Positions 1 through 13,843 of a stretch of 13,843 nucleotides of DNA are shown piece after piece. Under the pieces are notes generated by a model, which had not been told where the DNA came from, made no database searches, and worked only from the letters and a program-made list of their open reading frames with translations. Each line of letters starts with the position of its first letter. Position 1 is the stretch's first letter. A program made the position numbers and the translations under genes. Source of the DNA: a virus; the UHGV virus genome UHGV-0253101; one strand, given 5' to 3'.

Positions 1-138
<138 letters not shown>

Positions 139-142
139 CTAG
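139..142. repeat. CTAG immediately flanking the IS5 end; probable 4-bp target-site duplication
   Basis: IS5 is known to make 4-bp duplications at YTAR targets, and CTAG abuts the inverted repeat. The second copy would lie at the other IS5 end, outside the window. Confidence 0.45.
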
Positions 143-296
143 AATAGGCAGAGCTAAGCTGTTCGTCTAATTTTGACAGACGTTCGTTATCGCAGATTTT
201 ATGTTCGATTGCTGTCGAAGCCTTTTGGCAGTCAAAGCTGGCTGCAAATGCACCCGGCGATGCCACTAACAATGATGCCAGTAGGATATTTTTCAT
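139..296 (-). pseudogene. Small secreted protein gene interrupted by IS5 after about 53 codons
   Basis: The ATG at 296 (complement of 294..296) has a GGAG about 7 nt upstream. It encodes MKNILLASLLVASPGAFA (signal-peptide-like, AFA-AS cleavage site) then SFDCQKASTAIEHKICDNERLSKLDEQL. The reading frame runs into the IS5 inverted repeat at 138 and stops inside IS5 at 111 (tracked ORF 111..323). The N-terminus tentatively resembles LprI/DUF1311-type periplasmic proteins. Confidence 0.5.
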
Positions 297-590: not shown

Positions 591-881
591 TCATGATTTA
601 CTCTCAACGAACTGGTCAATAGCCATGCTAAGTGACATACCTAAAGTTTCGATATGCTGCTGAATATCCTGTAGCGTCTGCGCCTGAGATAACAGGATTT
701 CACGGTTGCATAACTCTTTAACCAGATGCTCAAACTTGCTGTAATAACCGATACGACTTAGTGTTTCTTTCCCTGCATTCTCGCCTTCTTTGATAATTCC
801 TCTTTCGCTAAGAATCAGATCGTGTTTGGTTCCGGTAATAACGTATTTTCCGAGGTCGATGTTTAGCTTCATTGTTTTCAT
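591..881 (-). CDS. hypothetical protein (about 97 aa), second gene of a two-gene minus-strand operon
   Basis: Part of tracked ORF 591..1031. The ATG at 881 ([14 protein letters not shown]...) has GAGGAA 8-12 nt upstream. An alternative ATG at 899 ([11 protein letters not shown]) sits 2 nt from the upstream gene's stop in an ATGACTGA arrangement. No recognisable motif. Confidence 0.5.
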
Positions 882-891
882 TGTTAATTCC

Positions 892-1185
892 TCAGTCATT
901 ACTGATAGCGCCATAGCGTGAGCGGTAATTACGCAGGCGAGGGTCAATTTCAGGGAAGTGGGTATATGTGGCTTTGCGGAATGGGCGGATTGATGTCTGG
1001 TAAATTCGCTCGCGTTCTTCTTTCTCTGCAAGCCATATACAATGGCGAAATTCCTTTTCCTCTTTCGTTTCCTGCGGTAGCGACATTATCCGGTCGTAGT
1101 TTTTTCTGAATTTATCCAGCACCTCCGATACGGAATTGCCGGAACAGCGGCGCGCGTCATCCTCACCATACAGAGGCGCTGGCAT
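892..1185 (-). CDS. hypothetical protein (97 aa), first gene of the two-gene minus-strand operon
   Basis: Tracked ORF with a strong AGGAGA Shine-Dalgarno 5-6 nt upstream of the ATG (complement of 1183..1185). Charged, Arg/Lys/Glu-rich protein with no recognisable catalytic motif. Confidence 0.55.
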   Translation of the reverse strand: MPAPLYGEDDARRCSGNSVSEVLDKFRKNYDRIMSLPQETKEEKEFRHCIWLAEKEERERIYQTSIRPFRKATYTHFPEIDPRLRNYRSRYGAISND

Positions 1186-1254
1186 GTTTTTCTCCTGATT
1201 AAATTGCGTGAATAGCGTGACGAGGGAAGGGGAGAGTTACTGGTGCAAAGGGTA

Positions 1255-1362
1255 TATATAACGAGCGTGTTCATCGGCTACATCGGTACTGACTCGATAG
1301 GTTCGCTTATCAAACGCTTCGCTGCTAAAAAAGCCGGAGTAGAAGATGGTGGAAATCAATAA
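1255..1362 (+). pseudogene. S: 3' remnant of a lambda-type holin S gene (last ~35 codons only)
   Basis: The frame ending at TAA 1360..1362 translates to ...[35 protein letters not shown], matching the C-terminal tail of lambda S as I recall it, and overlaps the R start as in lambda. An in-frame TAG at 1213..1215 and unrelated sequence upstream of about 1255 exclude a full-length holin. No plus-strand ORF of at least 60 aa ends here in the track. Confidence 0.7.
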
Positions 1363-1822
1363 TCAACGTAAGGCGTTCCTCGATATGCTGGCGTGGTCAG
1401 AGGGAACTGATAACGGACGTCAGAAAACCAGAAATCATGGTTATGACGTCATTGTAGGCGGAGAGCTATTCACTGATTACTCCGATCATCCTCGCAAACT
1501 TGTCACGCTAAACCCCAAACTCAAATCAACAGCAGCCGGGCGCTATCAGCTTCTTTCCCGTTGGTGGGATGCCTATCGTAAGCAGCTTGGTCTGAAAGAC
1601 TTCTCTCCCAAAAGTCAGGACGCTGTGGCATTGCAGCAGATTAAAGAGCGTGGCGCTTTACCGATGATTGACCGCGGTGATATCCGTCAGGCTATCGACC
1701 GTTGCAGCAATATCTGGGCTTCACTGCCGGGCGCTGGTTATGGCCAGTTCGAGCATGAGGCTGACAACCTGATTGCAAAATTCAAAGAGGCTGGCGGAAC
1801 GGTCAGAGAGATTGAGGTATGA
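1346..1822 (+). CDS. R: endolysin, lambda R-type lytic transglycosylase (158 aa)
   Basis: Protein [51 protein letters not shown]... is near-identical to lambda R as recalled. Its start overlaps the S remnant stop. Confidence 0.95.
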
Positions 1823-2256
1823 GCAGAGTGACCGCGATTATCTCCGCTCTGGTTATCTGCATCATCGTCTGCCTGTCATGGGCTGTTAATCATTACCGTG
1901 ATAACGCAATCGCCTACAAAGACCAGCGGGATAAAGCCACAACCATCATCGCTGATATGCAGAAGCGTCAACGTGACGTAGCAGAACTCGACGCCAGATA
2001 CACAAAGGAGCTTGCTGATGCTAACGCGACTATCGAAAGTCTCCGTGCTGATGTTTCTGCTGGTCGTAAGCGCCTGCAAGTCGCCGCCACCTGTGCAAAG
2101 TCAACGACCGGAGCCAGCAGCATGGGCGATGGAGAAAGCCCAAGACTTACAGCAGATGCTGAACTCAATTATTACCGTCTCCGAAGTGGAATAGACAGGA
2201 TAACCGCGCAGGTTAACTACCTGCAGGAGTACATCAGGACTCAGTGCCTGAAATAA
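1819..2256 (+). CDS. Rz: spanin inner-membrane subunit Rz (i-spanin), 145 aa
   Basis: ATGA overlap with the R stop. N-terminus [31 protein letters not shown] is a transmembrane segment, followed by a coiled-coil-like region as in lambda Rz. Confidence 0.9.
2012..2194 (+). CDS. Rz1: spanin outer-membrane lipoprotein subunit Rz1 (o-spanin), embedded in Rz in the +1 frame
   Basis: 60-aa ORF wholly inside Rz. Lipobox-like LLVVSAC followed by a proline-rich stretch ([16 protein letters not shown]), the architecture of lambda Rz1. Confidence 0.8.
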
Positions 2257-2287
2257 TTTTTTTGCAAATCACAAAGTCCATTTAATG

Positions 2288-2311
2288 AGCCTCGCGATGC
2301 GGGGCTTTTTT
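2288..2311 (+). terminator. rho-independent terminator-like hairpin downstream of Rz
   Basis: agcctcgc-gat-gcggggct forms an 8-bp stem (one G-U pair) with a 3-nt loop, followed by a T tract. Confidence 0.5.
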
Positions 2312-2458
2312 ATGTCCGCAGTAAACGCGCTTCACACGCGCGACTTATGAACACAGAACCTTTCAGGATGACCCTTGAGGATGCCGGTTTGGTGATCGGT
2401 ACCTTTCTGTGGGCCGGAATCCTGTGTGACAAGGTTCATCACTAAAAGGTAATTACTG

Positions 2459-2989
2459 ATGAAGTACCCAACAGTTATTGTCAATGGTGTGTCCGTTCGT
2501 GTTGATGAGGATGGACGCTACAACTTAAACGATCTCCATGCAGCAGCAGTTGCAAATGGAGAGGCTACAGAGCAACAGCGCCCAAGCCAGTTTTTGCGTA
2601 GCGCGCAGATAAAACGCTTCATCAAAGCACTGGAGGCCAAAGTGCAAAAAAGCACTTTGGAACAAATTCAACCACTTAAAATAATCAAAGGTGGTGCAGA
2701 ACCAGGTGTGTGGGGTGTTGAACTTCTGGCAATCAGATATGCAGCATGGATTAAGCCGGAATTTGAAATCGAAGTTTATGAAGTTTTCAAAACGGTTGTC
2801 CGTCTCGGCGTTGGCGCAATGTCCCGTCTGAATAGAATCGATCACATCATCAATACTGAAACCAAAGCGATAAGCCAGTGCGCAAGACAAATGGCTAAGT
2901 GGGGTGTTGGTGGGCGAAAAAGATTGCTTCATGTTGCACGTGAGAGAGCGGCAAATGAAGTGCAAATGTATTTGCCCGGGATGGTGTGA
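2459..2989 (+). CDS. KilA-N domain protein (176 aa), putative antirepressor or DNA-binding accessory protein
   Basis: AAGG ribosome-binding site before the ATG. N-terminal half (IVNGVSVRVDEDGRYNLNDLHAAA ... GVWGVELLAIRYAAWIKPEFEIEVYEVF) follows the KilA-N pattern of an N-terminal beta-rich segment then a conserved W-x-LA-x-YA-x-W-x-P-x-F block. C-terminal half has no recognised motif. Confidence 0.7.
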   Translation: MKYPTVIVNGVSVRVDEDGRYNLNDLHAAAVANGEATEQQRPSQFLRSAQIKRFIKALEAKVQKSTLEQIQPLKIIKGGAEPGVWGVELLAIRYAAWIKPEFEIEVYEVFKTVVRLGVGAMSRLNRIDHIINTETKAISQCARQMAKWGVGGRKRLLHVARERAANEVQMYLPGMV

Positions 2990-3094
2990 TTTCGCAGGTT
3001 AATCCGAGCAGTCCTTCAGTGAGGCTGCAATAATGCTTTATTCGTATGAAGACGAAGGGTAATCTGTAGACTCTGATTATCTAATGGAAGGTTT

Positions 3095-3301
3095 ATGATG
3101 GACAATTATTTTAAATCTGGCGATAACCGAGTATCTGATTCTGAGCACCAGCGTTTAGTGGCTACCAAAGCAGCTCTTGAAATTATCAAGGCCGCCGTAT
3201 CTGCCCCTACCCATGCGAAAAACGTGTCTTATGATTTGGAGGAGGCAATAAAATATCTTCCACGGTTGACTGATGCTATTCAGGAAACGATTGGCAAATA
3301 G
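3095..3301 (+). CDS. hypothetical small protein (68 aa)
   Basis: GGAAGG ribosome-binding site about 5 nt upstream of the ATG. Predicted helical and hydrophilic. Lies in a visibly AT-rich stretch. Confidence 0.45.
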   Translation: MMDNYFKSGDNRVSDSEHQRLVATKAALEIIKAAVSAPTHAKNVSYDLEEAIKYLPRLTDAIQETIGK

Positions 3302-3353
3302 CATTTGATTTTAGTTTTATTATCTCACCTTAAATATGAGTGAGATTAATACA

Positions 3354-3377
3354 AAGCTACCTACGAGTAGCTTTTTA
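3354..3377 (+). terminator. possible rho-independent terminator after the 68-aa ORF
   Basis: aagctac ... gtagctt inverted repeat (7-bp stem, 6-nt loop) followed by tttt. Confidence 0.4.
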
Positions 3378-3441
3378 ATGGCTTATACCTTACACGGGAT
3401 AACTTAACTGATATCCCCACAAGCGGATAAAGAGATTCTCA

Positions 3442-3567
3442 ATGTCCAACATCTACCAAATCACGTTAACCACCCAAACAGGCGAAACCGTTACGAGCAA
3501 GACGTCACGATTTCAGCATGAGTTGGTTAACGGCTTTGTGCCGCTTGTGATCGAGACGGGAGAGTGA
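3442..3567 (+). CDS. very small ORF (41 aa), speculative
   Basis: ATG...TGA encoding MSNIYQITLTTQTGETVTSKTSRFQHELVNGFVPLVIETGE with only a weak AAGAG upstream. The frame stays open for about 21 more codons past the TGA, so it may be a nonsense-interrupted longer gene. Confidence 0.2.
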   Translation: MSNIYQITLTTQTGETVTSKTSRFQHELVNGFVPLVIETGE

Positions 3568-3697
3568 CTGTATTTCTCTCCCGACAATGTGAAGCGCATA
3601 CAGTTCACGCCAGAATTGAATGATGAAGCGTGATAAGTGGCTATTTTGTGGTATAGGTTTATGCGCTAAAACAATCAATTAGCTCAGTCAATGATCT

Positions 3698-4222
3698 CTA
3701 TTGTCCTGCAACTTGTTTAGTGAGTCTTAGGATGATGCTGCCAAGAATAGCTATGAATTTTTCACGATTATTGGCATCTGGACGGTTAAGATTCAGCTCA
3801 ATGTCTCCAACTTTTATGCCGAATCTTGCTGAGTTAATGAGATCTTCCTGACCACCTCGGCTAATAAATGTTCGTAATGATTCAATTTCTGCGTCAGTTA
3901 TTTCCGGGTTGTCTATTTGATGAGAGCGAACATTTCTTATTCTATTTAGGCGTTTAAGTTCTGCGACGGAGTGTTCATTTAGGCCGAGGTTGGCAGCTAG
4001 CTGAATTTTTGCGGCATAGGTCATGGTTAAGTTTTCACCAAATCCATCAAATAGATTTTGGTTACCTACAGCGGCGCAACAAAATGCCTCAATCATTGCT
4101 TCTGTAATCAGATGTACTCTTAAAACCAAACCAATATCATCTTCAGTATTTACTAACCTTTCAATTCGTTGCCAAGTTGCTTCGTTCATTATGAACTTTG
4201 ATTCAAAAATTTCAGGATTCAT
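3698..4222 (-). CDS. HEPN-like protein (174 aa); candidate abortive-infection or toxin-type defence gene
   Basis: Tracked ORF antisense to the late operon. An R-N-V-R-S-H motif (Rx4H, residues 96-101, coded at 3920..3937) fits the HEPN Rx4-6H ribonuclease signature, in a predicted all-helical protein. Visibly AT-rich compared with the flanking terminase gene. AGGT about 6 nt upstream of the ATG. Confidence 0.6.
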   Translation of the reverse strand: MNPEIFESKFIMNEATWQRIERLVNTEDDIGLVLRVHLITEAMIEAFCCAAVGNQNLFDGFGENLTMTYAAKIQLAANLGLNEHSVAELKRLNRIRNVRSHQIDNPEITDAEIESLRTFISRGGQEDLINSARFGIKVGDIELNLNRPDANNREKFIAILGSIILRLTKQVAGQ

Positions 4223-4249
4223 TTATTTACCTTATCAGCAGGGGAAAAT

Positions 4250-4777
4250 ATGGCGCTCACTGACAAACAAGAAATGTTCTGTCGCGAGTACCTCATCGAT
4301 TTAAACGCCACGCAAGCGGCTATTCGGGCGGGGTACAGCGCAAAAACAGCCAACCGTACTGCGTCCGAAAACATGTCAAAACCTGACATACAACTCAGAA
4401 TCTCCGAATTGAAAGCACAACGCAATGACTCTGTTGGAATAAATGCAGAATATGTACTTAATCGCCTTATTGAAATCGACCAGATGGATGTGCTCGACAT
4501 TCTCCTGCAAAACGGTGAGTTAAAGCCCATTAAAGACTGGCCTAAGGTATGGCGCACAACGTTATCAGGAATGGATGTTGTGGAGATGGTATCCGCAGAT
4601 AGTGCAGCACTCCTGAAGAAAATCAAATGGCCTGATAAGGTTAAAAACCTCGAACTTCTTGGTAAGCATGTTTCTGTTCAGGCGTTTAAAGAACAAGCTT
4701 CTCACGAACTAACAGGCAAAGACGGCGGCGCAATCCAGATTGAAACATCACCGATGAGCACTCTATTCGGAAAATGA
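4250..4777 (+). CDS. terminase small subunit (175 aa), Terminase_2-like N-terminal DNA-binding domain
   Basis: N-terminus MALTDKQEMFCREYLIDLNATQAAIRAGYS is the characteristic small-terminase helix-turn-helix signature. ATGA overlap with the large terminase start. Confidence 0.9.
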   Translation: MALTDKQEMFCREYLIDLNATQAAIRAGYSAKTANRTASENMSKPDIQLRISELKAQRNDSVGINAEYVLNRLIEIDQMDVLDILLQNGELKPIKDWPKVWRTTLSGMDVVEMVSADSAALLKKIKWPDKVKNLELLGKHVSVQAFKEQASHELTGKDGGAIQIETSPMSTLFGK

Positions 4778-6099
4778 CCTCGATTAATCCTATCTTTGAA
4801 CCGTTCATTGAGGCGCATCGCTACAAAGTCGCCAAAGGCGGTCGAGGTAGCGGTAAGTCATGGGCAATTGCGAGGCTTCTTGTTGAAGCGGCGCGTCGGC
4901 AGCCTGTGCGTATTCTTTGCGCTCGTGAGCTGCAAAACAGTATCAGCGATTCGGTAATCCGGTTGCTTGAAGACACCATCGAGCGTGAAGGATATTCGGC
5001 TGAGTTTGAAATTCAGCGTTCCATGATTCGTCATCTCGGAACGAATGCTGAATTCATGTTCTACGGCATCAAAAACAACCCGACGAAGATTAAATCGCTC
5101 GAAGGCATTGATATCTGTTGGGTGGAAGAAGCTGAAGCGGTAACGAAGGAATCATGGGATATCCTGATACCAACCATCCGCAAGCCATTTTCCGAAATAT
5201 GGGTGAGCTTCAACCCGAAGAACATACTCGACGATACCTATCAGCGGTTCGTCGTAAATCCTCCTGATGATATTTGCCTGCTGACGGTGAACTACACCGA
5301 CAACCCGCACTTTCCTGAAGTTCTCCGTCTGGAGATGGAAGAGTGCAAACGCAGAAATCCGACACTGTATCGTCACATCTGGCTTGGTGAGCCAGTAAGC
5401 GCAAGTGATATGGCAATCATCAAACGTGAATGGCTTGAAGCCGCAACCGATGCGCACAAGAAACTCGGATGGAAAGCGAAAGGCGCTGTTGTCTCTGCGC
5501 ATGACCCGTCAGATACAGGGCCGGATGCTAAAGGTTATGCATCGCGTCACGGTTCGGTTGTTAAGCGCATTGCCGAAGGTCTGCTGATGGACATCAATGA
5601 AGGTGCTGACTGGGCAACTTCGCTGGCGATTGAAGACGGTGCTGACCATTACCTGTGGGATGGTGATGGTGTTGGTGCTGGCCTACGCAGACAGACAACG
5701 GAAGCGTTCTCCGGCAAGAAAATCACCGCCACGATGTTCAAGGGCAGTGAATCGCCATTCGATGAAGATGCGCCGTATCAGGCCGGAGCATGGGCTGATG
5801 AAGTCGTACAGGGCGACAACGTTCGCACTATTGGTGATGTGTTCCGCAATAAGCGAGCGCAATTCTATTACGCGCTGGCTGACAGGCTGTATCTGACATA
5901 TCGGGCGGTTGTTTACGGTGAGTATGCAGACCCCGACGACATGCTGAGTTTCGACAAAGAAGCGATAGGCGAGAAGATGCTGGAGAAGCTGTTTGCAGAA
6001 CTGACGCAGATTCAGCGCAAATTCAATAACAACGGGAAGCTGGAGCTAATGACTAAGGTCGAAATGAAGCAGAAGCTCGGTATTCCATCTCCTACGTGA
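4774..6099 (+). CDS. terminase large subunit (441 aa), probably C-terminally truncated
   Basis: Walker [10 protein letters not shown] near the N-terminus, then a nuclease-domain-like C-terminal half. Ends ...[10 protein letters not shown]-stop, whereas homologues as I recall them continue with an SP-D/N-L-ADAL segment. Confidence 0.9.
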
Positions 6100-6100
6100 G

Positions 6101-7456
6101 GTGAATAAATGCCGATTGTTGGCTGGTATCGGTGGTGTCAACTCAAACGCTCCGAGCGTAAATGACATCGGCAATACGCTTCAGCTTATCAGGCAGAACA
6201 ATGATATTGAGCGTTCAGGCGCTAACAATGTTGGGCTGACTGCTTTGCAAGGCCTTTCAGGTATTGCGGGTGTTTTTCAGCAGGAAAAGCAGGCTCAGCG
6301 GCAGAAAGAATTTCAGCAGGCATACGCTAAAGCTTATGCGTCTGGTGATCGCGGTGCTTTGCGTCAGTTGGCTACTCAATATCCAGACCAGATTGAATCT
6401 GTTCGTAAAGGCATGGGATTCATTGATGAAGACCAGCGTAATTCTATCGGCACCTTAGCGGCTGGCGCACGCCTTGCGTCATCGTCTCCAGAAGCAATGC
6501 AATCATGGCTGCAAAACAACGCCAAGGAACTGACTCGCGTCGGTGTTGACCCTAACAGCGTTGCTCAGATGTATCAGCAGAATCCTTCAGGATTTGGTGA
6601 GTTTGTTGATCACCTTGGGATGGCTGCGCTTGGTCCGATTGATTACTTCAATGTTCAGGACAAGATAGCTGGTCGTGAGATTGACCGAGGCAGACTGGCA
6701 GAGACAATCCGCAGCAATCAGGCTGGCGAGGCGCTAACAGCGCGTGGTCAGAATATCACGATGCGCGGTCAGGATTTATCGATGCAGAGAGCATCAATGA
6801 AAGGGGCGGTTGGGAATAATGAGCGTACAGTTCAGTTAGCAGATGGCAGAACTGTAACGGTAGGCGGGAAGCTTCACGGCGCTGGGGCTAATGCGTTCTA
6901 CGAAGGTATCGACAACGAGGGGAATATGGTTCGCGTTCCTGCTGGTTCTATTGCCGCTCCGGCTACATCGGCAGCAAGCGCGCAGAATTACGCAATGAAG
7001 AAAGATCTTGATGCAATTTCTGGTGCATCAATTGACGATCTTGGCTTCATGACTGGCATTACAGGCTCTTCAGGTTCTCCTGCTCTTGGTGCAGATATTC
7101 GTAGCCGTGCATCTGGTGGTGATCAGAGGAAACTATACAACGCTGCACAGCGAATCCAAGGAAAGATGCAGAATCAGGGCATTGCAGCAGCCAGAGACAT
7201 GGGGGCATCCGGTATCAACACCGTTGCAGAAGCAAAGATGTATTTTCAAGGTATGCCACAGGTTGATTTCTCAAGCCCTGAAGCACTGCAACAATCAATG
7301 CGCGACATTCAGCAATATACCGACAATTACAACCAGCAATATAACGTTAATGTCGGTAATGGCGGGAAGAAATCATCAAGGCAACAGCCAGCTACTCAGC
7401 AATCAGCAGGAGGTAGCTACACGTCAAAATCAGGCATTCAATTTACGGTGGAATGA
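6101..7456 (+). CDS. putative DNA-ejection (injection) protein, P22 gp20-like (451 aa), N-terminus uncertain
   Basis: Starts at a GTG one nucleotide after the terminase stop. Gln/Ala/Gly-rich with no catalytic motif. Size and position (second-to-last late gene before the immI-like region) match P22 gene 20 (about 471 aa). Confidence 0.5.
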
Positions 7457-9294
7457 TGAAAGTAACTGCAAACGGTAAGACATTTACCTTCCCTGATGGT
7501 ACGAGCACGGAAGATATTGGCACCGCCATTGATGAGTATTTTGCTGGTCAGGCTGTTCAGCAACAAACAGTTAATCAGGCCAATAATGCACCAACACGGG
7601 AAGAACCATCATTGATGCAACAAGCTGGCGATTGGCTCACTGGTGGTCAAAGTGCAGGGCAAATTGCAGAACAGGCTGGTCGTGGTCTGGTAAACATACC
7701 ATTTGACGTATTACAGGGCGGCGCAAGTCTGATTAATGCAATCAGTCAGGGGCTTGGTGGCCCCAAGGTTTTGGATGATGTTTATCGTCCAGTAGACAGA
7801 CCGACAGACCCCTACGCTCAAGCTGGAGAAACAATTGGCGGGTATTTAGTTCCAGGAGTTGGAACGGCAGGAAGCATGGCTATTGGATCACTGGCAGAGG
7901 CCGCAAATCAGAAAGGTGATTTCGCACAAAATGCAGCTAAAAATGCCGGAGTTAACCTTGCCGCTCAGGGTGTTCTTTCCGCAGCAGCAAAGGGAATAGG
8001 GCGTGGAATAACGGCTATAAAAGGTGATATTGCGCCAGAAGTGGCAAAGAAAATTGCCACATCAGAATCGATGGGCGTGACACCAATGACATCTGATGTT
8101 ATCCCGCCGAAAAATGCTTTCACTCGCGGACTTACTCAGGATGCTGAGGGGGCTTTGCTCGGGACAGGCTCAAAGCGAGCGGAGCAATATGCAACGCGTA
8201 GTAAGCTGGTAAGCAATTATTTTGACCGTTTTGGTGAGTACAACCCTGATGATGTGGTGAGATCTCTGACCACCACGTTAAGGGGACGGAAGGATGCCGC
8301 TGGCGCTGTTATCAATGACGTCACCAATAAAATGGGTAATGCCGCAGTTGATACCACAAATACCATGAATGCTCTGAATACAGCGATCGCAAGACAGGAA
8401 CGGCTTGGGACTTCTGCCAATCAAAACCTGCTTACATCCTTGCGTAACCTACGTGAAGAATTAGCAAACCCTGCAACTGATTTGGATGTTACGTTTGATC
8501 TCTTGCGCCAGCACAGAACAGCATTTAGATCTAATGTTCAGGGAGATGCCATGGTCTTCCCCAACCAGGCAAAAGCAGCTACCAATATGGTAGAGAATGC
8601 AATGTCAAAAGACCTTCGTAACGCAGTTGCCAAAAACCTCGGTGCTTCAGACGCAGCAAAATACCTTAAAGCAAATTCCGATTATGCAAACGTTTATAAT
8701 AAGGTGCTTAATAAAAACATTGCTAACAAGCTCAACAAGGCAAGCAGTGAAGCCAGTCCTGAACTTATAAATACTGTTGTATTAAGCAGAAAACCATCTG
8801 ACGTGAAACGAATCTGGAGCGCATTGGATGATAAAGGGAAAGATGCTATGCGTGCAGCTTACGTCAGCAAAATAGCGGAAAAGGCCGGTGACTCTCCAGC
8901 CAAGTTCATCACGGAAGTTAATAAGCTGAAATCTCAGTCAGGCGGTGAAATTTACAACACTATTTTTTCTGGAAAGCACATGAAAGAACTTGATGCTCTT
9001 CATGAAGTTCTACAGCAAGCAGCAAGATCAGACACCGCAAATGTAGTAACTCAGACGGGGCAATCGCAAGCCAACAGGATAAGGACGATTGGCGCAACTA
9101 CGACTCTTGGCGTATCAATGGGGCTTGAGGCTGGTTTCGGTGCAATGATGCGCTTGTATGAATCCAAAGCAGCAAGGAATGCGCTCTTACGTCTGGCAAA
9201 CACTAAAGCTGGAACGCCAGCTTATGAAAGAGCGCTAAATCAGGCGGCTACTGCCGTGCGCCCGCTCTTAGTTAACGAAGCTACCCGGCAGTAG
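7453..9294 (+). CDS. putative DNA-ejection (injection) protein, P22 gp16-like (613 aa)
   Basis: ATGA start/stop overlap with the upstream gene. N-terminus [31 protein letters not shown] resembles prophage DNA-transfer proteins as I recall them. Size (613 vs about 609 aa) and position match P22 gene 16. Confidence 0.55.
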
Positions 9295-9316
9295 CACTGT
9301 AAGCCAAGGACGGCAT

Positions 9317-9799
9317 TTATTTTATAGTTTTTATGAATTCTTTATTAAATCCCTTTGCTTCTCCGGGGTATCTTCCGAAGACAATTTTTATAAAAACAGA
9401 AAAAATAAAGATAGCAACGCTTAACAACAATTGCAGTATCATTGGAACCCAAAGAACTACAGGCTCTATATTCATGAAACCAAATATTCTTCCGGCGATC
9501 ATGGCGAAGTACCACACTGTTATCAGCAAACTTAGTGGCATATGAATTACTGATATTACCAATCCAAGAGCATCAGTAATTCTGTTTTCAAATTTTTCAG
9601 GGGAAAACTTTTCTTTAAGGTAATTCAGTGCGCAGGCCTCATTCTCTGGATTTTCAGCATTTTTCCCTATAGCAATAGAAATCTCAGATATCCTTGATTC
9701 AATTCTTTTACGTTTAATAAAACTAGAAAAAAAGAACCACGCAATCTGCAACCCTATCCCCAGAAATAGAGTTGCGGCAACTAGCACAGCGTAACTCAT
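9317..9799 (-). CDS. multi-pass membrane protein (161 aa); candidate SieA-like superinfection-exclusion protein, by position
   Basis: Internal start of tracked ORF 9317..10027 ([24 protein letters not shown]...) with AGGAGG upstream. About three hydrophobic helices (residues ~3-25, ~83-105, ~112-140) around a charged loop. Strongly AT-rich. Occupies the slot between gene 16 and mnt that holds sieA in P22. Confidence 0.55.
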
Positions 9800-9841
9800 A
9801 GAATCAGACACACCAACCTCCTTAGTTTTGCGCAGGATACC

Positions 9842-10207
9842 ATGAAAAAAGTTAACATTGGAAACGTACCAAAGATGCTCGTTCCGCTCTTTGAGAGCGG
9901 TACAATTGTGTTTTGTAGAGACTTTCCAGAATGGCAACGCCTGCATCAAAAACTTGGCGTTGACGTGCATGACTCGGACGCCAACGGAGCGTCTCATACA
10001 ATGAGTAGCGAGAATGGTGTTTTGCATGTGATAGGCGTGTTCAATGGCAAACTATCTACTATTGCCCATGAGTGCGCTCACATGGCATTCGATATCTGCT
10101 CAAGGGTAGGTGTTGATGTTGAACCAGGAAGAGCCAACGAGACTTACTGCTACTTAATGAGCAGGCTTGTTGAGTTCTGCGAGCGACATATCAAAAAGCC
10201 GGAGTGA
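9842..10207 (+). CDS. small HExxH-motif protein (121 aa), possible minimal zinc metallopeptidase-like protein
   Basis: Tracked ORF divergent from the membrane protein gene, with a 42-bp gap between them. H-E-C-A-H at residues 76-80 (10067..10081) within [11 protein letters not shown]. Several Cys/His residues. No confident family assignment. Confidence 0.5.
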
Positions 10208-10220
10208 CCCGGCTTGATTA

Positions 10221-10400
10221 TTACTTTTTGCTGTCTGGAGTTCGCTTATCCAATACCCAGCCATGACCTGGCTTTGTTGTTGGTGGAAGCCTTTCGTTGT
10301 CCTTGACGGTTGCAAAATTGTCTTTCTTACCGCCGCGTGGGCCAACTTCTTGGTATATTCCGCCGTTTTTTCCTGTGTTTTCACCTGGTTTTTTCGCCAT
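10221..10400 (-). CDS. small basic Lys/Gly-rich protein (59 aa), tentatively YjzC-like
   Basis: Internal ATG of tracked ORF 10221..10415 with GAGG about 7 nt upstream. Protein MAKKPGENTGKNGGIYQEVGPRGGKKDNFATVKDNERLPPTTKPGHGWVLDKRTPDSKK. Family resemblance is from memory and uncertain. Confidence 0.4.
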   Translation of the reverse strand: MAKKPGENTGKNGGIYQEVGPRGGKKDNFATVKDNERLPPTTKPGHGWVLDKRTPDSKK

Positions 10401-10490
10401 GATATACCTCAACATACACCCGTTATTGGGCGATTAAATATTGATCTCATTTTATAAGTAGTCAATATGGCCCAGGTAAATGCAAAAATT

Positions 10491-10516
10491 AACCCACCTT
10501 CAGGTGGGTTTTTTGT
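10491..10516. terminator. rho-independent terminator-like hairpin overlapping the mnt stop codon, possibly bidirectional
   Basis: aacccacc-ttca-ggtgggtt is a perfect 8-bp stem followed by tttt on the plus strand. On the minus strand the same stem is followed by aattttt. Confidence 0.55.
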
Positions 10517-10751
10517 ACAAATCCTTCAGCGTATCAAACACCATCTTCTTAACAAGCTCTGACTGCTCATCAGCGATGCGTTCCGCATCGTCTCGATAGC
10601 CTGAAATTTTGGATGGCTTTGATACAGCATCAGTCACTATCTGAACTAATTCTGAATTAAGAGAGCGGCCATTGGATTTGGCTCGCTGTTTTAGTTTTTC
10701 CTTTAATTCGTAAGGTAGCCGCAGATTAAATTGCGGGTCATCTCTTCCCAT
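10500..10751 (-). CDS. mnt: Mnt repressor (83 aa), Arc/MetJ-type ribbon-helix-helix
   Basis: Protein MGRDDPQFNLRLPYELKEKLKQRAKSNGRSLNSELVQIVTDAVSKPS...DDAERIADEQSELVKKMVFDTLKDLYKKPT matches P22 Mnt closely as recalled, in length and sequence. Confidence 0.9.
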   Translation of the reverse strand: MGRDDPQFNLRLPYELKEKLKQRAKSNGRSLNSELVQIVTDAVSKPSKISGYRDDAERIADEQSELVKKMVFDTLKDLYKKPT

Positions 10752-10814
10752 TCTTGATGCCTCGCTTTTGTGAGTGGATCGGCATCTTATTATCTGCTGG
10801 TTGCATCCTCAATA

Positions 10815-10829
10815 AGACCACAGTGGTCT
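10815..10829. promoter_or_regulatory. putative Mnt operator: 15-bp palindrome AGACCAC-A-GTGGTCT
   Basis: Near-perfect dyad (7-bp arms) between the divergent mnt and tailspike starts. Resembles the P22 mnt operator core (GGTCCAC-G-GTGGACC as recalled). A partial half-site CACTGTGG lies at about 10852..10859. Confidence 0.5.
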
Positions 10830-10897
10830 CTTTGTTTGATTAATAATGCATCACTGTGGCAATGCTGCGGCGATTCCTTGTATCTGGAGCAAATTAA

Positions 10898-13843
10898 ATG
10901 ACAGACATTACAGCCAATGTTGTAGTGAGTATGCCTTCGCAACTCTTCACTATGGCGCGTTCTTTTAAAGCCGTAGCCAATGGCAAAATTTATATCGGTA
11001 AAATTGACACTGACCCGGTAAATCCTGAAAACCAGATTCAGGTTTATGTAGAGAACGAAGACGGTTCTCACATTCCTGTTTCGCAACCAATAATCATTAA
11101 CGCTGCTGGATATCCGGTATATAACGGACAGATTGCCAAATTCGTTACCGTGCAAGGCCATTCTATGGCTGTTTATGATGCGTATGGTGCGCAGCAGTTC
11201 TATTTTCCTAATGTGCTGAAGTATGATCCTGATCAGTTACGGCAGCAATTAGAAGACCCAGATGGAGCGAATAAATACCCAAAACTTCAGATAGCAAGAT
11301 GGAGAGACAGTTATGATGTAAGAGGTTGGGGGGCTATTGGTGATGGTGTTCATGATGACACATCAGCTCTATCAGAATTACTTTCTGTTGCAACAGGTGG
11401 TGAAAAGATAGATGGGCGAGGGCTTACTTTTAAAGTATCAACTCTTCCAGATGTCAGTCGATTTAAAAATGCTCGTTTTTTATTTGAGAGAATACCGGGT
11501 CAGCCTCTTTTTTATGCTTCTGAAGATTTTATCCAGGGAGAGTTATTTAAAATTACAGATACACCGTGGTACAACGCCTGGACGCAGGATAAAACGTTTG
11601 TATATGACAATGTCATCTATGCGCCTTTTATGGCTGGAGACCGCCATGGTGTAAATAACCTCCATGTTGCATGGGTTCGCTCAGGAGATGACGGGAAGAC
11701 CTGGACAACGCCGGAATGGCTTACAGATTTACATGAAAACTATCCCACAGTTAACTATCACTGCATGAGTATGGGGGTTGTCAGAAATCGCCTTTTTGCT
11801 GTAATTGAGACGCGGACCGTGAGCGGAAATAAACTGCAGGTTGCAGAGTTGTGGGATCGCCCAATGAGTCGCAGCCTTCGCGTTTATGGTGGTATAACGA
11901 AAGCAGCAAATCAGCAAGTCGCTTATATTCGCATTACTGATCACGGATTATTTGCTGGTGATTTTGTCAACTTCTCAAACTCTGGTGTTACAGGTGTTAC
12001 CGGGAATATGACGGTGACTACTGTTATTGATAAAAATACTTTTACAGTTACGACGCAAAATACCCAGGATGTGGATCAGAATAACGAGGGTAGATACTGG
12101 AGTTTTGGTACATCATTTCACTCGTCACCATGGAGAAAAACCAGTCTTGGAACTATTCCTTCTTTTGTTGACGGAAGCACTCCTGTTACTGAGATTCACA
12201 GTTTTGCGACGATTAGCGATAACAGTTTTGCTGTTGGCTACCATAATGGTGATATTGATCCACGCGAGCTTGGGATACTCTATTTCTCTGATGCTTTCGG
12301 TTCTCCTGGTAGCTTTGTTCGCAGACGCATACCTGTAGAATATGAGGCGAATGCATCTGAGCCATGTGTAAAATATTATGATGGCATTCTGTATCTGACG
12401 ACCAGGGGGACATTAAGTACTCAACCCGGTAGTTCATTGCACAGAAGCTCTGATTTAGGTACATCATGGAATTCTCTTCGCTTCCCAAATAATGTTCATC
12501 ACTCAAACCTTCCTTTTGCCAAAGTTGGCGATGAGCTGATTATTTTTGGCAGTGAGCGCGCATTTGGTGAGTGGGAAGGAGGAGAACCTGATAACCGTTA
12601 TGCAGGAAATTATCCAAGAACATTTATGACCAGAGTTAACGTCAATGAGTGGAGTCTGGATAATGTAGAGTGGGTTAATGTTACTGATCAGATTTATCAG
12701 GGCGGAATAGTTAACTCTGCGGTTGGTGTTGGTTCAGTTTGTATCAAAGACAACTGGCTGTACTACATTTTCGGTGGGGAAGACTTTCTAAACCCATGGA
12801 GCATAGGGGATAACAACAGAAAATATCCTTATGTTCACGATGGTCACCCGGCTGATTTGTATTGTTTCAGGGTGAAAATTAAACAGGAAGAATTTGTTTC
12901 AAGGGATTTTGTCTACGGAGCCACTCCTAACAGAACGCTTCCTACTTTTATGTCGACGTCAGGCGTGAGGACGGTTCCTGTACCCGTTGATTTCACAGAT
13001 GATGTTGCCGTCCAGTCACTGACTGTCCATGCAGGTACATCAGGACAAGTTCGCGCGGAAGTCAAACTTGAGGGTAATTACGCCATTATTGCGAAGAAAG
13101 TACCGTCTGATGATGTTACCGCTCAGAGATTAATCGTTAGCGGCGGTGAAACAACGTCTTCAGCAGATGGTGCAATGATAACGTTGCATGGTTCCGGAAG
13201 CAGTACTCCACGTCGCGCGGTATATAACGCACTCGAACATCTTTTTGAGAACGGAGATGTTAAACCTTATCTTGATAATGTAAATGCTCTTGGTGGTCCG
13301 GGAAACAGGTTCTCGACAGTTTATCTTGGCTCCAATCCTGTGGTTACCAGTGACGGAACATTAAAGACAGAGCCGGTCTCTCCTGACGAAGCATTGCTGG
13401 ATGCCTGGGGTGACGTCAGGTATATCGCTTATAAATGGCTGAACGCTGTCGCTATAAAGGGGGAAGAAGGGGCGAGGATACATCATGGTGTAATCGCGCA
13501 GCAACTTCGTGATGTTCTTATTTCTCACGGACTCATGGAAGAAGAAAGCACAACATGCCGCTATGCGTTTCTTTGCTATGACGATTATCCCGCAGTATAT
13601 GATGACGTCATTACTGGCCAAAGGGAAATGCCGCTGACTGATAATGACGGGAGCATCATTGTTGATGAGGATGATAATCCAGTGATGGTAATGGAAGACA
13701 TCATTGAGCGCGTTGAAATAACGCCAGCAGGATCTAGATGGGGGGTCAGACCTGATCTCTTATTCTATATCGAGGCGGCATGGCAGCGCAGAGAAATAGA
13801 AAGAATAAAAGCTAGGTTAGACTTAATAGAAGGGAAGCACTAA
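10898..13843 (+). CDS. tailspike protein (981 aa): P22 gp9-type head-binding domain, sialidase-like domain with two Asp-boxes (probable endosialidase) and C-terminal intramolecular-chaperone autoproteolytic domain
   Basis: GGAG about 8 nt before the ATG. N-terminus [50 protein letters not shown]...VLKYDPDQ is collinear with the P22 gp9 head-binding domain. Asp-boxes SGDDGKTW (11681..11704) and SSDLGTSW (12446..12469) fit the S-x-D-x-G-x-T-W consensus. The C-terminal ~160 aa ([10 protein letters not shown] ... [13 protein letters not shown] ...) resemble the peptidase S74 chaperone domain of endosialidases and some tail fibres. Confidence 0.9.

Follow-up and report, generated by a model that had tools for sequence, protein, structure and literature searches.

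The 13,843-nt stretch of DNA analysed here (UHGV virus genome UHGV-0253101; hereafter the window) is very probably the late region of a decayed CUS-3/Sf6-like (P22-like, Lederbergvirus) prophage that lost two stretches of DNA in one Escherichia coli clone. The first-pass annotation had estimated that 8-10 kb of morphogenetic genes were missing; compared with the intact SW4848 prophage, the net loss is 8,519 bp, between codon 441 of the large terminase gene terL and codon 11 of the ejection protein gene 20. The element is a further instance of a well-known kind, the decayed P22-like prophage.

Genomic location and gene content

The window is identical, base for base, to an ENA metagenome contig (ERZ27315542 k141_54542, L007), and the chromosome of E. 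coli EC931 (NZ_CP049118.1) differs from window positions 628-13843 at a single base. EC931 is a urine isolate from China. In this chromosome the element occupies the lambda attB region, with ybhC on one side and ybhB/bioA on the other, and carries a lambda-type integrase. The integrase is followed by a truncated excisionase, an inserted IS5, a few early-left genes and a truncated holin; then come the endolysin, Rz, KilA-N, terS and terL genes, and finally genes 20 and 16, sieA, mnt/arc, the endosialidase tailspike gene and a hexapeptide acyltransferase gene. The window opens with an IS5 end in reverse orientation (1..138), at which the metagenome contig breaks, and the left end of the EC931 IS5 corresponds to window 1-149 on the opposite strand.

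On the left of the window, an anti-RecBCD (Abc2-like) gene (892..1185, minus strand; PF11043 and PGAP annotation) is the last early-left gene retained, and the intact endolysin and Rz lysis genes (1346..2256, plus strand) have the same WP accessions as those of the SW4848 prophage. The start of a P22-like late operon is present: an intact small terminase gene, terS (4250..4777, plus strand; Pfam Terminase_2, E = 1e-39), is followed by a terL of the Sf6/P22 type (Pfam Terminase_2 and Terminase_3 across the two genes). The end of such an operon is also present and comprises gene 20, gene 16, immI and a tailspike whose head-binding domain is of the P22 type, as judged from PF16928, PF26808, the Arc/Mnt families and PF09008 together with phrog_917 and phrog_770. 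Gene 16 is intact (7453..9294, plus strand; 613 aa; PF26808, phrog_770) and shares its WP accession with SW4848. The middle of the operon, portal to gp7, is missing, and terL and gene 20 are separated by only 23 nt. The two large ORFs downstream of terL are gp20 and gp16 by Pfam and PHROG, which rules out their being the portal and coat proteins.

The first-pass annotation had described the tailspike and accessory genes as kept, and both the endosialidase tailspike gene and a SieA-like superinfection exclusion gene are indeed intact. The former (10898..13843, plus strand) encodes Head_binding, endosialidase and Peptidase_S74 domains, and its 5' end has 96% nucleotide identity to siaK1 of CUS-3; the latter (9317..9811, minus strand) matches PF26849 and phrog_7745 (E = 7e-109). 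The statement that the repressor was kept holds for the Mnt/Arc-type repressor of immI (10500..10751, minus strand; PF03869 and PF11423) but not for the cI/cro early region, which has been deleted in this lineage.

The closest intact relative used in the comparison was the SW4848 prophage (NZ_CP107284.1, about 3,333,310-3,372,704; coordinates within it are given below with the prefix L003), which has the attB site (ybhC) and the integrase in common with the window element. Twelve of its proteins carry identical WP accessions, including the integrase, endolysin, gp16, SieA, Arc and tailspike, and its Rz and KilA-N proteins are likewise identical. At the DNA level it is 100% identical to window 1255-6094 and 99.95% identical to window 6111-11575. 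Downstream of terL (471 aa), SW4848 has portal, scaffold, coat, a small ORF, gp4, gp10, a tail protein at the gp26 position, DUF2824 at the gp14 position, gp7, gp20 (456 aa) and gp16. Its holin and early region are intact, and its early-left genes form a different mosaic from those of the window element.

CUS-3 of E. coli K1 RS218 (CP000711) is likewise P22-like and encodes a K1 endosialidase tailspike, and its terL has about 96% nucleotide identity to that of the window. CUS-3 is complete and integrated at argW, whereas the element studied here shares the endosialidase tailspike but not the integration site: it sits at lambda attB, without the head module and early region. An att-site segment, an integrase adjoining ybhC and missing virion-essential genes together identify it as a cryptic prophage. 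It has neither the head and tail genes nor the early region, and its holin and excisionase are truncated; an element lacking these head, tail and early genes is predicted to make no virions, in line with the first reading of this DNA.

A compound joint between terL and gene 20

The joint was mapped by three-way alignment, in which the DNA was divided into segment A (terL), segment B (an island) and segment C (gene 20). Homology to the SW4848 prophage ends at window 6094 (L003 14395) and restarts at 6111-6118 (L003 22931-22938). Segment A is terL through 6094, and segment C is gene 20 from 6118 (L003 22938). Between them, local search and alignment identified a 23-nt island (6095..6117, plus strand) that derives from the gp4/gp10 boundary and corresponds to L003 19613-19635. 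The missing DNA therefore consists of L003 14396-19612 (5,217 bp) and L003 19636-22937 (3,302 bp). The portal, scaffold, coat, small ORF, gp4, gp10, gp26, gp14 and gp7 genes have been lost, together with the last 31 codons of terL and codons 1-10 of gene 20.

Both sides of the island show short microhomology. Joint 1, between terL and the 3' end of gp4, has 2 nt (TA; 6093..6094, plus strand), and joint 2, between gp10 codon 3 and gp20 codon 10/11, has 4 nt (GATT; 6114..6117, plus strand). The island holds the last codon of gp4 with its TGA, the gp10 Shine-Dalgarno sequence GAGGTG (6098-6103), and the gp10 ATG (6109) with two further codons. The retained gp10 start opens an 18-codon ORF (6109..6165, plus strand), which by translation and frame analysis is out of frame with gene 20. 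Positions 6095-6113 form an exact 19-mer (25 nt when the shared bases are counted) found at the gp4/gp10 boundary of both the SW4848 prophage and CUS-3, and this exact copy rules out untemplated filler or a divergent gp20 allele as the source of these bases. The direct abutment of terminase and gp20 described at first thus stands for the ORFs, which are 1 base apart, but not for the DNA, where the joint is compound and has the gp4/gp10 island in between. Folds of the DNA at the breakpoints were no better than those of shuffled sequence (z-scores +0.75 to -1.5), giving no sign of hairpins there.

Without portal, scaffold, coat, head-completion, needle and gp7 genes, the element would be unable to assemble a capsid. 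Taken at the level of gene content, the picture is one of ordinary prophage decay, in which a dead prophage would no longer be able to make virus particles.

A truncated terminase and a start-less gene 20

The large terminase gene (4774..6099, plus strand; Pfam Terminase_3) encodes a 441-aa protein that is truncated at residue 440 and ends in a Thr and a stop taken from gp4. It is identical at 440 of 440 residues to the 471-aa TerL of the intact SW4848 prophage, after which come N441T and the stop, so the possibility that the terminase is full length is ruled out. The first-pass annotation had recognized that the protein, with its C-terminus ...GIPSPT, was short; 31 C-terminal residues are lost. 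Because the compound joint keeps the gp4/gp10 boundary island, the stop codon of the terminase is really that of gp4: terL is fused in frame to the last gp4 codon (ACG) and to the gp4 TGA (6097-6099).

The intact TerL is near-identical to Sf6 gp2 (PDB 4IDH), and the suggested alignment of the window protein with Sf6 gp2 (PDB 4IDH, 5C10-5C2F) bears this out, with near-identity over residues 1-440 and then the stop. In Sf6 gp2 the metal-binding triad of the nuclease consists of D244, D296 and D444, and N441 is also metal-coordinating (PMC4678813). Ending at residue 440, the window TerL has thus lost two active-site residues. Judged by this alignment, the truncated TerL is a protein with an intact ATPase domain and a nuclease domain that lacks the metal ligands N441 and D444 and the C-terminal tail, all three of which Sf6 gp2 has. 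From this loss we infer that the element would be unable to cut DNA for packaging.

Gene 20 (6101..7456, plus strand; Pfam Inj_translocase, E = 2e-76) has lost its native Shine-Dalgarno sequence, its ATG and codons 1-10. The 451-aa ORF opens at GTG 6101, one nucleotide after the terminase, as was noted at the outset, and from residue 11 of the intact protein onwards the comparison with gp20 proposed there gives complete agreement (446 of 446 residues, positions 11-456 of the 456-aa intact gp20). Only two in-frame starts are available, namely GTG 6101 (chosen by PGAP), which has no upstream Shine-Dalgarno sequence, and TTG 6116 (chosen by Prodigal), which lies 13 nt from one. Translation of gp20 is therefore probably poor, as far as these start signals allow a prediction. 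The earlier view that the ejection proteins are kept holds for genes 20 and 16 with qualifications: gene 7 is deleted, and gene 20 is without its own start, ribosome-binding site and 10 codons. In RefSeq, neither the truncated terminase nor the gene 20 without its start is distinguished from an ordinary intact gene, and prophage predictors could score the region as a phage though it is predicted to make no particles.

A second deletion in the early region

On the left of the window, a 3' fragment of a phage ssb gene (1199..1257, minus strand) forms the left side of the early-region deletion, where alignment to WCHEC025943 (L020) extends through window 1257. It is joined to the 3' fragment of a lambda-family holin gene (1255..1362, plus strand), and from window 1255 the sequence follows the SW4848 prophage from L003 9556, within the intact holin at L003 9340-9663. 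The holin had been called truncated in the first reading; the last 35 of its 107 codons are left, and PGAP flags it as lacking its N-terminus. The joint has the microhomology TAT (1255-1257). In the window's sub-lineage it has removed the recombination, immunity, replication and antitermination (nin, Q) regions, and it would represent a separate removal of the immunity, replication and antitermination region. Microhomology of 2-4 nt is thus common to all three joints (terL/gp4, gp10/gp20 and ssb/holin), in keeping with what RecA-independent illegitimate recombination is expected to leave. Two groups of contigs (L019 and L010/L017) have the same head junction with a different lambdoid Q-porin-holin-endolysin block upstream of Rz, which indicates that the head-module deletion is not tied to the holin truncation.

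Distribution of the junction

The 58-nt junction string (window 6078-6135) was base-identical in all 12 assemblies fetched, among them two complete chromosomes (CP049118.1 and OZ040824.1), drafts of isolate genomes, and assemblies from ENA, JGI and Logan. Over 3.6-13 kb, these assemblies show 0-5 SNPs relative to the window. Contigs with the exact 441-aa TerL number 211 and those with the 446-aa gp20 number 181, and the junction occurs in only 1 of 5,426 complete RefSeq E. coli genomes. Such identical junctions, together with the near-identity to the intact phage, point to a deletion that would be recent and fixed in one well-sampled clone. None of the observations speaks against the deletion as such.

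The window itself was taken from a MEGAHIT-style metagenome contig terminating in IS5, and a misassembly of a genome with a complete head module would be one way to produce such a joint. This explanation has a negligible probability, as CP049118.1, OZ040824.1, several drafts of isolate genomes and a number of independent metagenomes all have the identical junction, and the exact fusion protein is present on 211 contigs. Within EC931, the 3' part of gp4 and the 5' part of gp10 were each found at one place per record, with no further copy of either. This E. coli lineage can be recognized cleanly by its unique 58-nt junction, which serves as a clonal marker, and the main value of these observations is for annotation and epidemiology.

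One event or two

Illegitimate recombination at very short homologies would have taken out the two stretches and stranded the 23-nt island between them. We lean slightly towards two separate deletions in the head module rather than one event, because each joint type occurs alone in other remnants. In MSB1_9I (NZ_LR890508.1), a decayed P22-like prophage, terL (L003 14448) is joined to the 3' end of gp4 (L003 19562), and islands of 236 and 341 nt are kept between other deletions. In PSJ-29 (NZ_AP027639.1), also a decayed P22-like prophage, gp10 codon 3 is joined to gene 20 at L003 23059. Each of the two has one joint type only, and both differ from the window in their other breakpoints and tailspikes and, for PSJ-29, in the integration site.

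We consider it less probable, though still quite conceivable, that a single complex event produced the compound joint, either by replication template switching with two forward jumps or by end-joining repair that copied a short templated patch from the lost segment. A leftover of only 23 nt is unlikely from two random and independent deletions, the island is collinear with its source and in the same orientation, and microhomology (TA, GATT) is found at both joints. Moreover, chimeric queries found no one-joint assembly with these endpoints among complete E. coli genomes, and an intermediate with gp4 intact and the second joint only was not found in a scan of JGI metagenome contigs. These searches for intermediates covered limited collections, however, and MSB1_9I and PSJ-29, which are unrelated remnants, each show one of the deletion types standing alone; the two islands of MSB1_9I further indicate that stepwise decay can leave such pieces behind. 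Two successive deletions accordingly remain our slightly preferred reading.

The left endpoint in PSJ-29 is the same nucleotide as that of joint 2 here, and the PSJ-29 flanks belong to another allele with 96-97% identity. By chance, such a coincidence has a probability of about 5/300 for one comparator and a 300-nt search window. Scans of viral and metagenome contigs for further junctions that diverge just after ...ATGCCGATT returned the window type only. The compound joint and the endpoint it has in common with the unrelated PSJ-29 are small data points on prophage decay.

Passive debris or retained function

The remnant is probably just carried along by its host. Comparable elements are familiar from E. 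coli K-12, namely the grounded prophages DLP12, Rac, Qin and e14, from which deletions and IS insertions have removed structural and regulatory genes, with a small number of accessory genes still present and expressed. Compared with the element described here, these prophages are of greater age and divergence, and their late regions are lambda-like, not P22-like.

It is very unlikely, in our assessment, that the remnant is instead a domesticated module, such as an anti-phage decoy or a satellite-like element, whose deletion was selected. Under this explanation, selection would favour the keeping of TerS, an ATPase-only TerL, gp20, gp16, SieA and the tailspike, and it is true that every retained ORF is open, that sieA adjoins gene 16 and that the clone is widely sampled. 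Yet the flanks match the intact phage at 99.95-100% identity, so that frames would be expected to stay open even if nothing selected for them, and divergence this close to zero gives no means of telling whether the retained ORFs are under selection. The translation start of gene 20 and the catalytic residues of TerL are gone, and other remnants show similar random-looking decay. PADLOC defence models gave no match for TerL, KilA-N, SieA or the ORFs of unknown function. Nor does the element qualify as a phage satellite of the PICI or P4-like type: its TerL is catalytically incomplete, and the Pfam, PHROG and PGAP annotations contain no primase/replicase gene and no gene that would redirect capsids or packaging.

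A more specific proposal is that the nuclease-less TerL, if expressed, would act alongside SieA as a decoy that poisons the packaging motor of superinfecting Sf6-, CUS-3- or HK620-type phages. The truncated protein retains the ATPase domain and presumably the TerS contacts, and a decoy of this kind, if true, would account for the wide sampling of the clone; we regard it as highly improbable. In a weaker variant of this reading, the gp10 start might be a true deletion hotspot in P22-like prophages.

With passive carriage as the preferred reading, the candidates for anything that keeps the remnant would be genes expressed from the prophage, namely sieA, mnt and a neuO-like capsule acetyltransferase. 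The P22 homologue of SieA blocks DNA injection by P22-like phages (PMC10883804). These three retained genes, of which the putative neuO-like capsule acetyltransferase lies beyond the window, may matter to the host. As the K1 endosialidase tailspike, the SieA gene and the putative capsule acetyltransferase are all kept, the remnant may still affect capsule biology and phage resistance. In related assemblies, the gene downstream of the tailspike, outside the window, encodes a hexapeptide-repeat acyltransferase of 111-268 aa with a weak Pfam match.

Junction backgrounds and related remnants

Some contigs, L019, L010 and L017, share the identical terL|gp4'|gp20 junction, yet upstream of Rz, from window 1819, their lambdoid late block is another one. 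This alternative block, found at L019 10400-13645 on the minus strand and at the 5' ends of L010 and L017, encodes Q, an OmpC-like porin of 360 aa, a holin of 86 aa and an endolysin of 165 aa. Two upstream backgrounds of the same junction thus exist.

We compared window 6095-6118 with the gp10|gp20 deletion of PSJ-29 (L016 12276-12310), a P22-like remnant that is located at argW and is unrelated to the window element. On its left side this deletion ends after ...ATGCCGATT, at exactly the nucleotide where joint 2, the gp10|gp20 joint of the window, has its left endpoint; its right endpoint lies 121 nt deeper in gene 20 and is devoid of microhomology. The common left endpoint may reflect either a deletion hotspot or a coincidence. 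In the MSB1_9I remnant, which is integrated at the ybhC attB as is the window element, terL was joined to the 3' end of gp4 (L015 11767-12410), with both breakpoints about 50 nt from those of the window; the islands left between its deletions were 236 nt (primase) and 341 nt (terL).

Accessory genes and IS5 positions

Between the lysis genes and terS, a typical moron position, lies a minus-strand 174-aa ORF (window 3698-4222; phrog_5483, unknown function) that is also kept in the intact phage. Pfam and PADLOC searches with this ORF returned no match. The sieA gene, also on the minus strand, was listed as a 236-aa product (window 9317-10027) in the mechanical ORF list and as a 164-aa product (window 9317-9811) by PGAP and Prodigal; the 164-aa call covers the full SieA-like PHROG profile.

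Downstream of the window, 3' of the tailspike, a hexapeptide acyltransferase (L002 28858-29193, L008 13495-14301, L009 13444-14157 and L013 10271-11047 in the compared records) measured 111, 237, 258 or 268 aa depending on the assembly. Such variation in length fits a repeat tract subject to phase variation, as in CUS-3 neuO.

The window starts with a reverse-orientation IS5 end (1-149) adjoining LprI-proximal sequence, whereas in isolate EC931 and most other isolates IS5 is located at window 628-632, inside the DUF5405 gene. IS5 thus occupies different sites in members of one clone, unless the difference is a quirk of metagenome assembly, which is possible.
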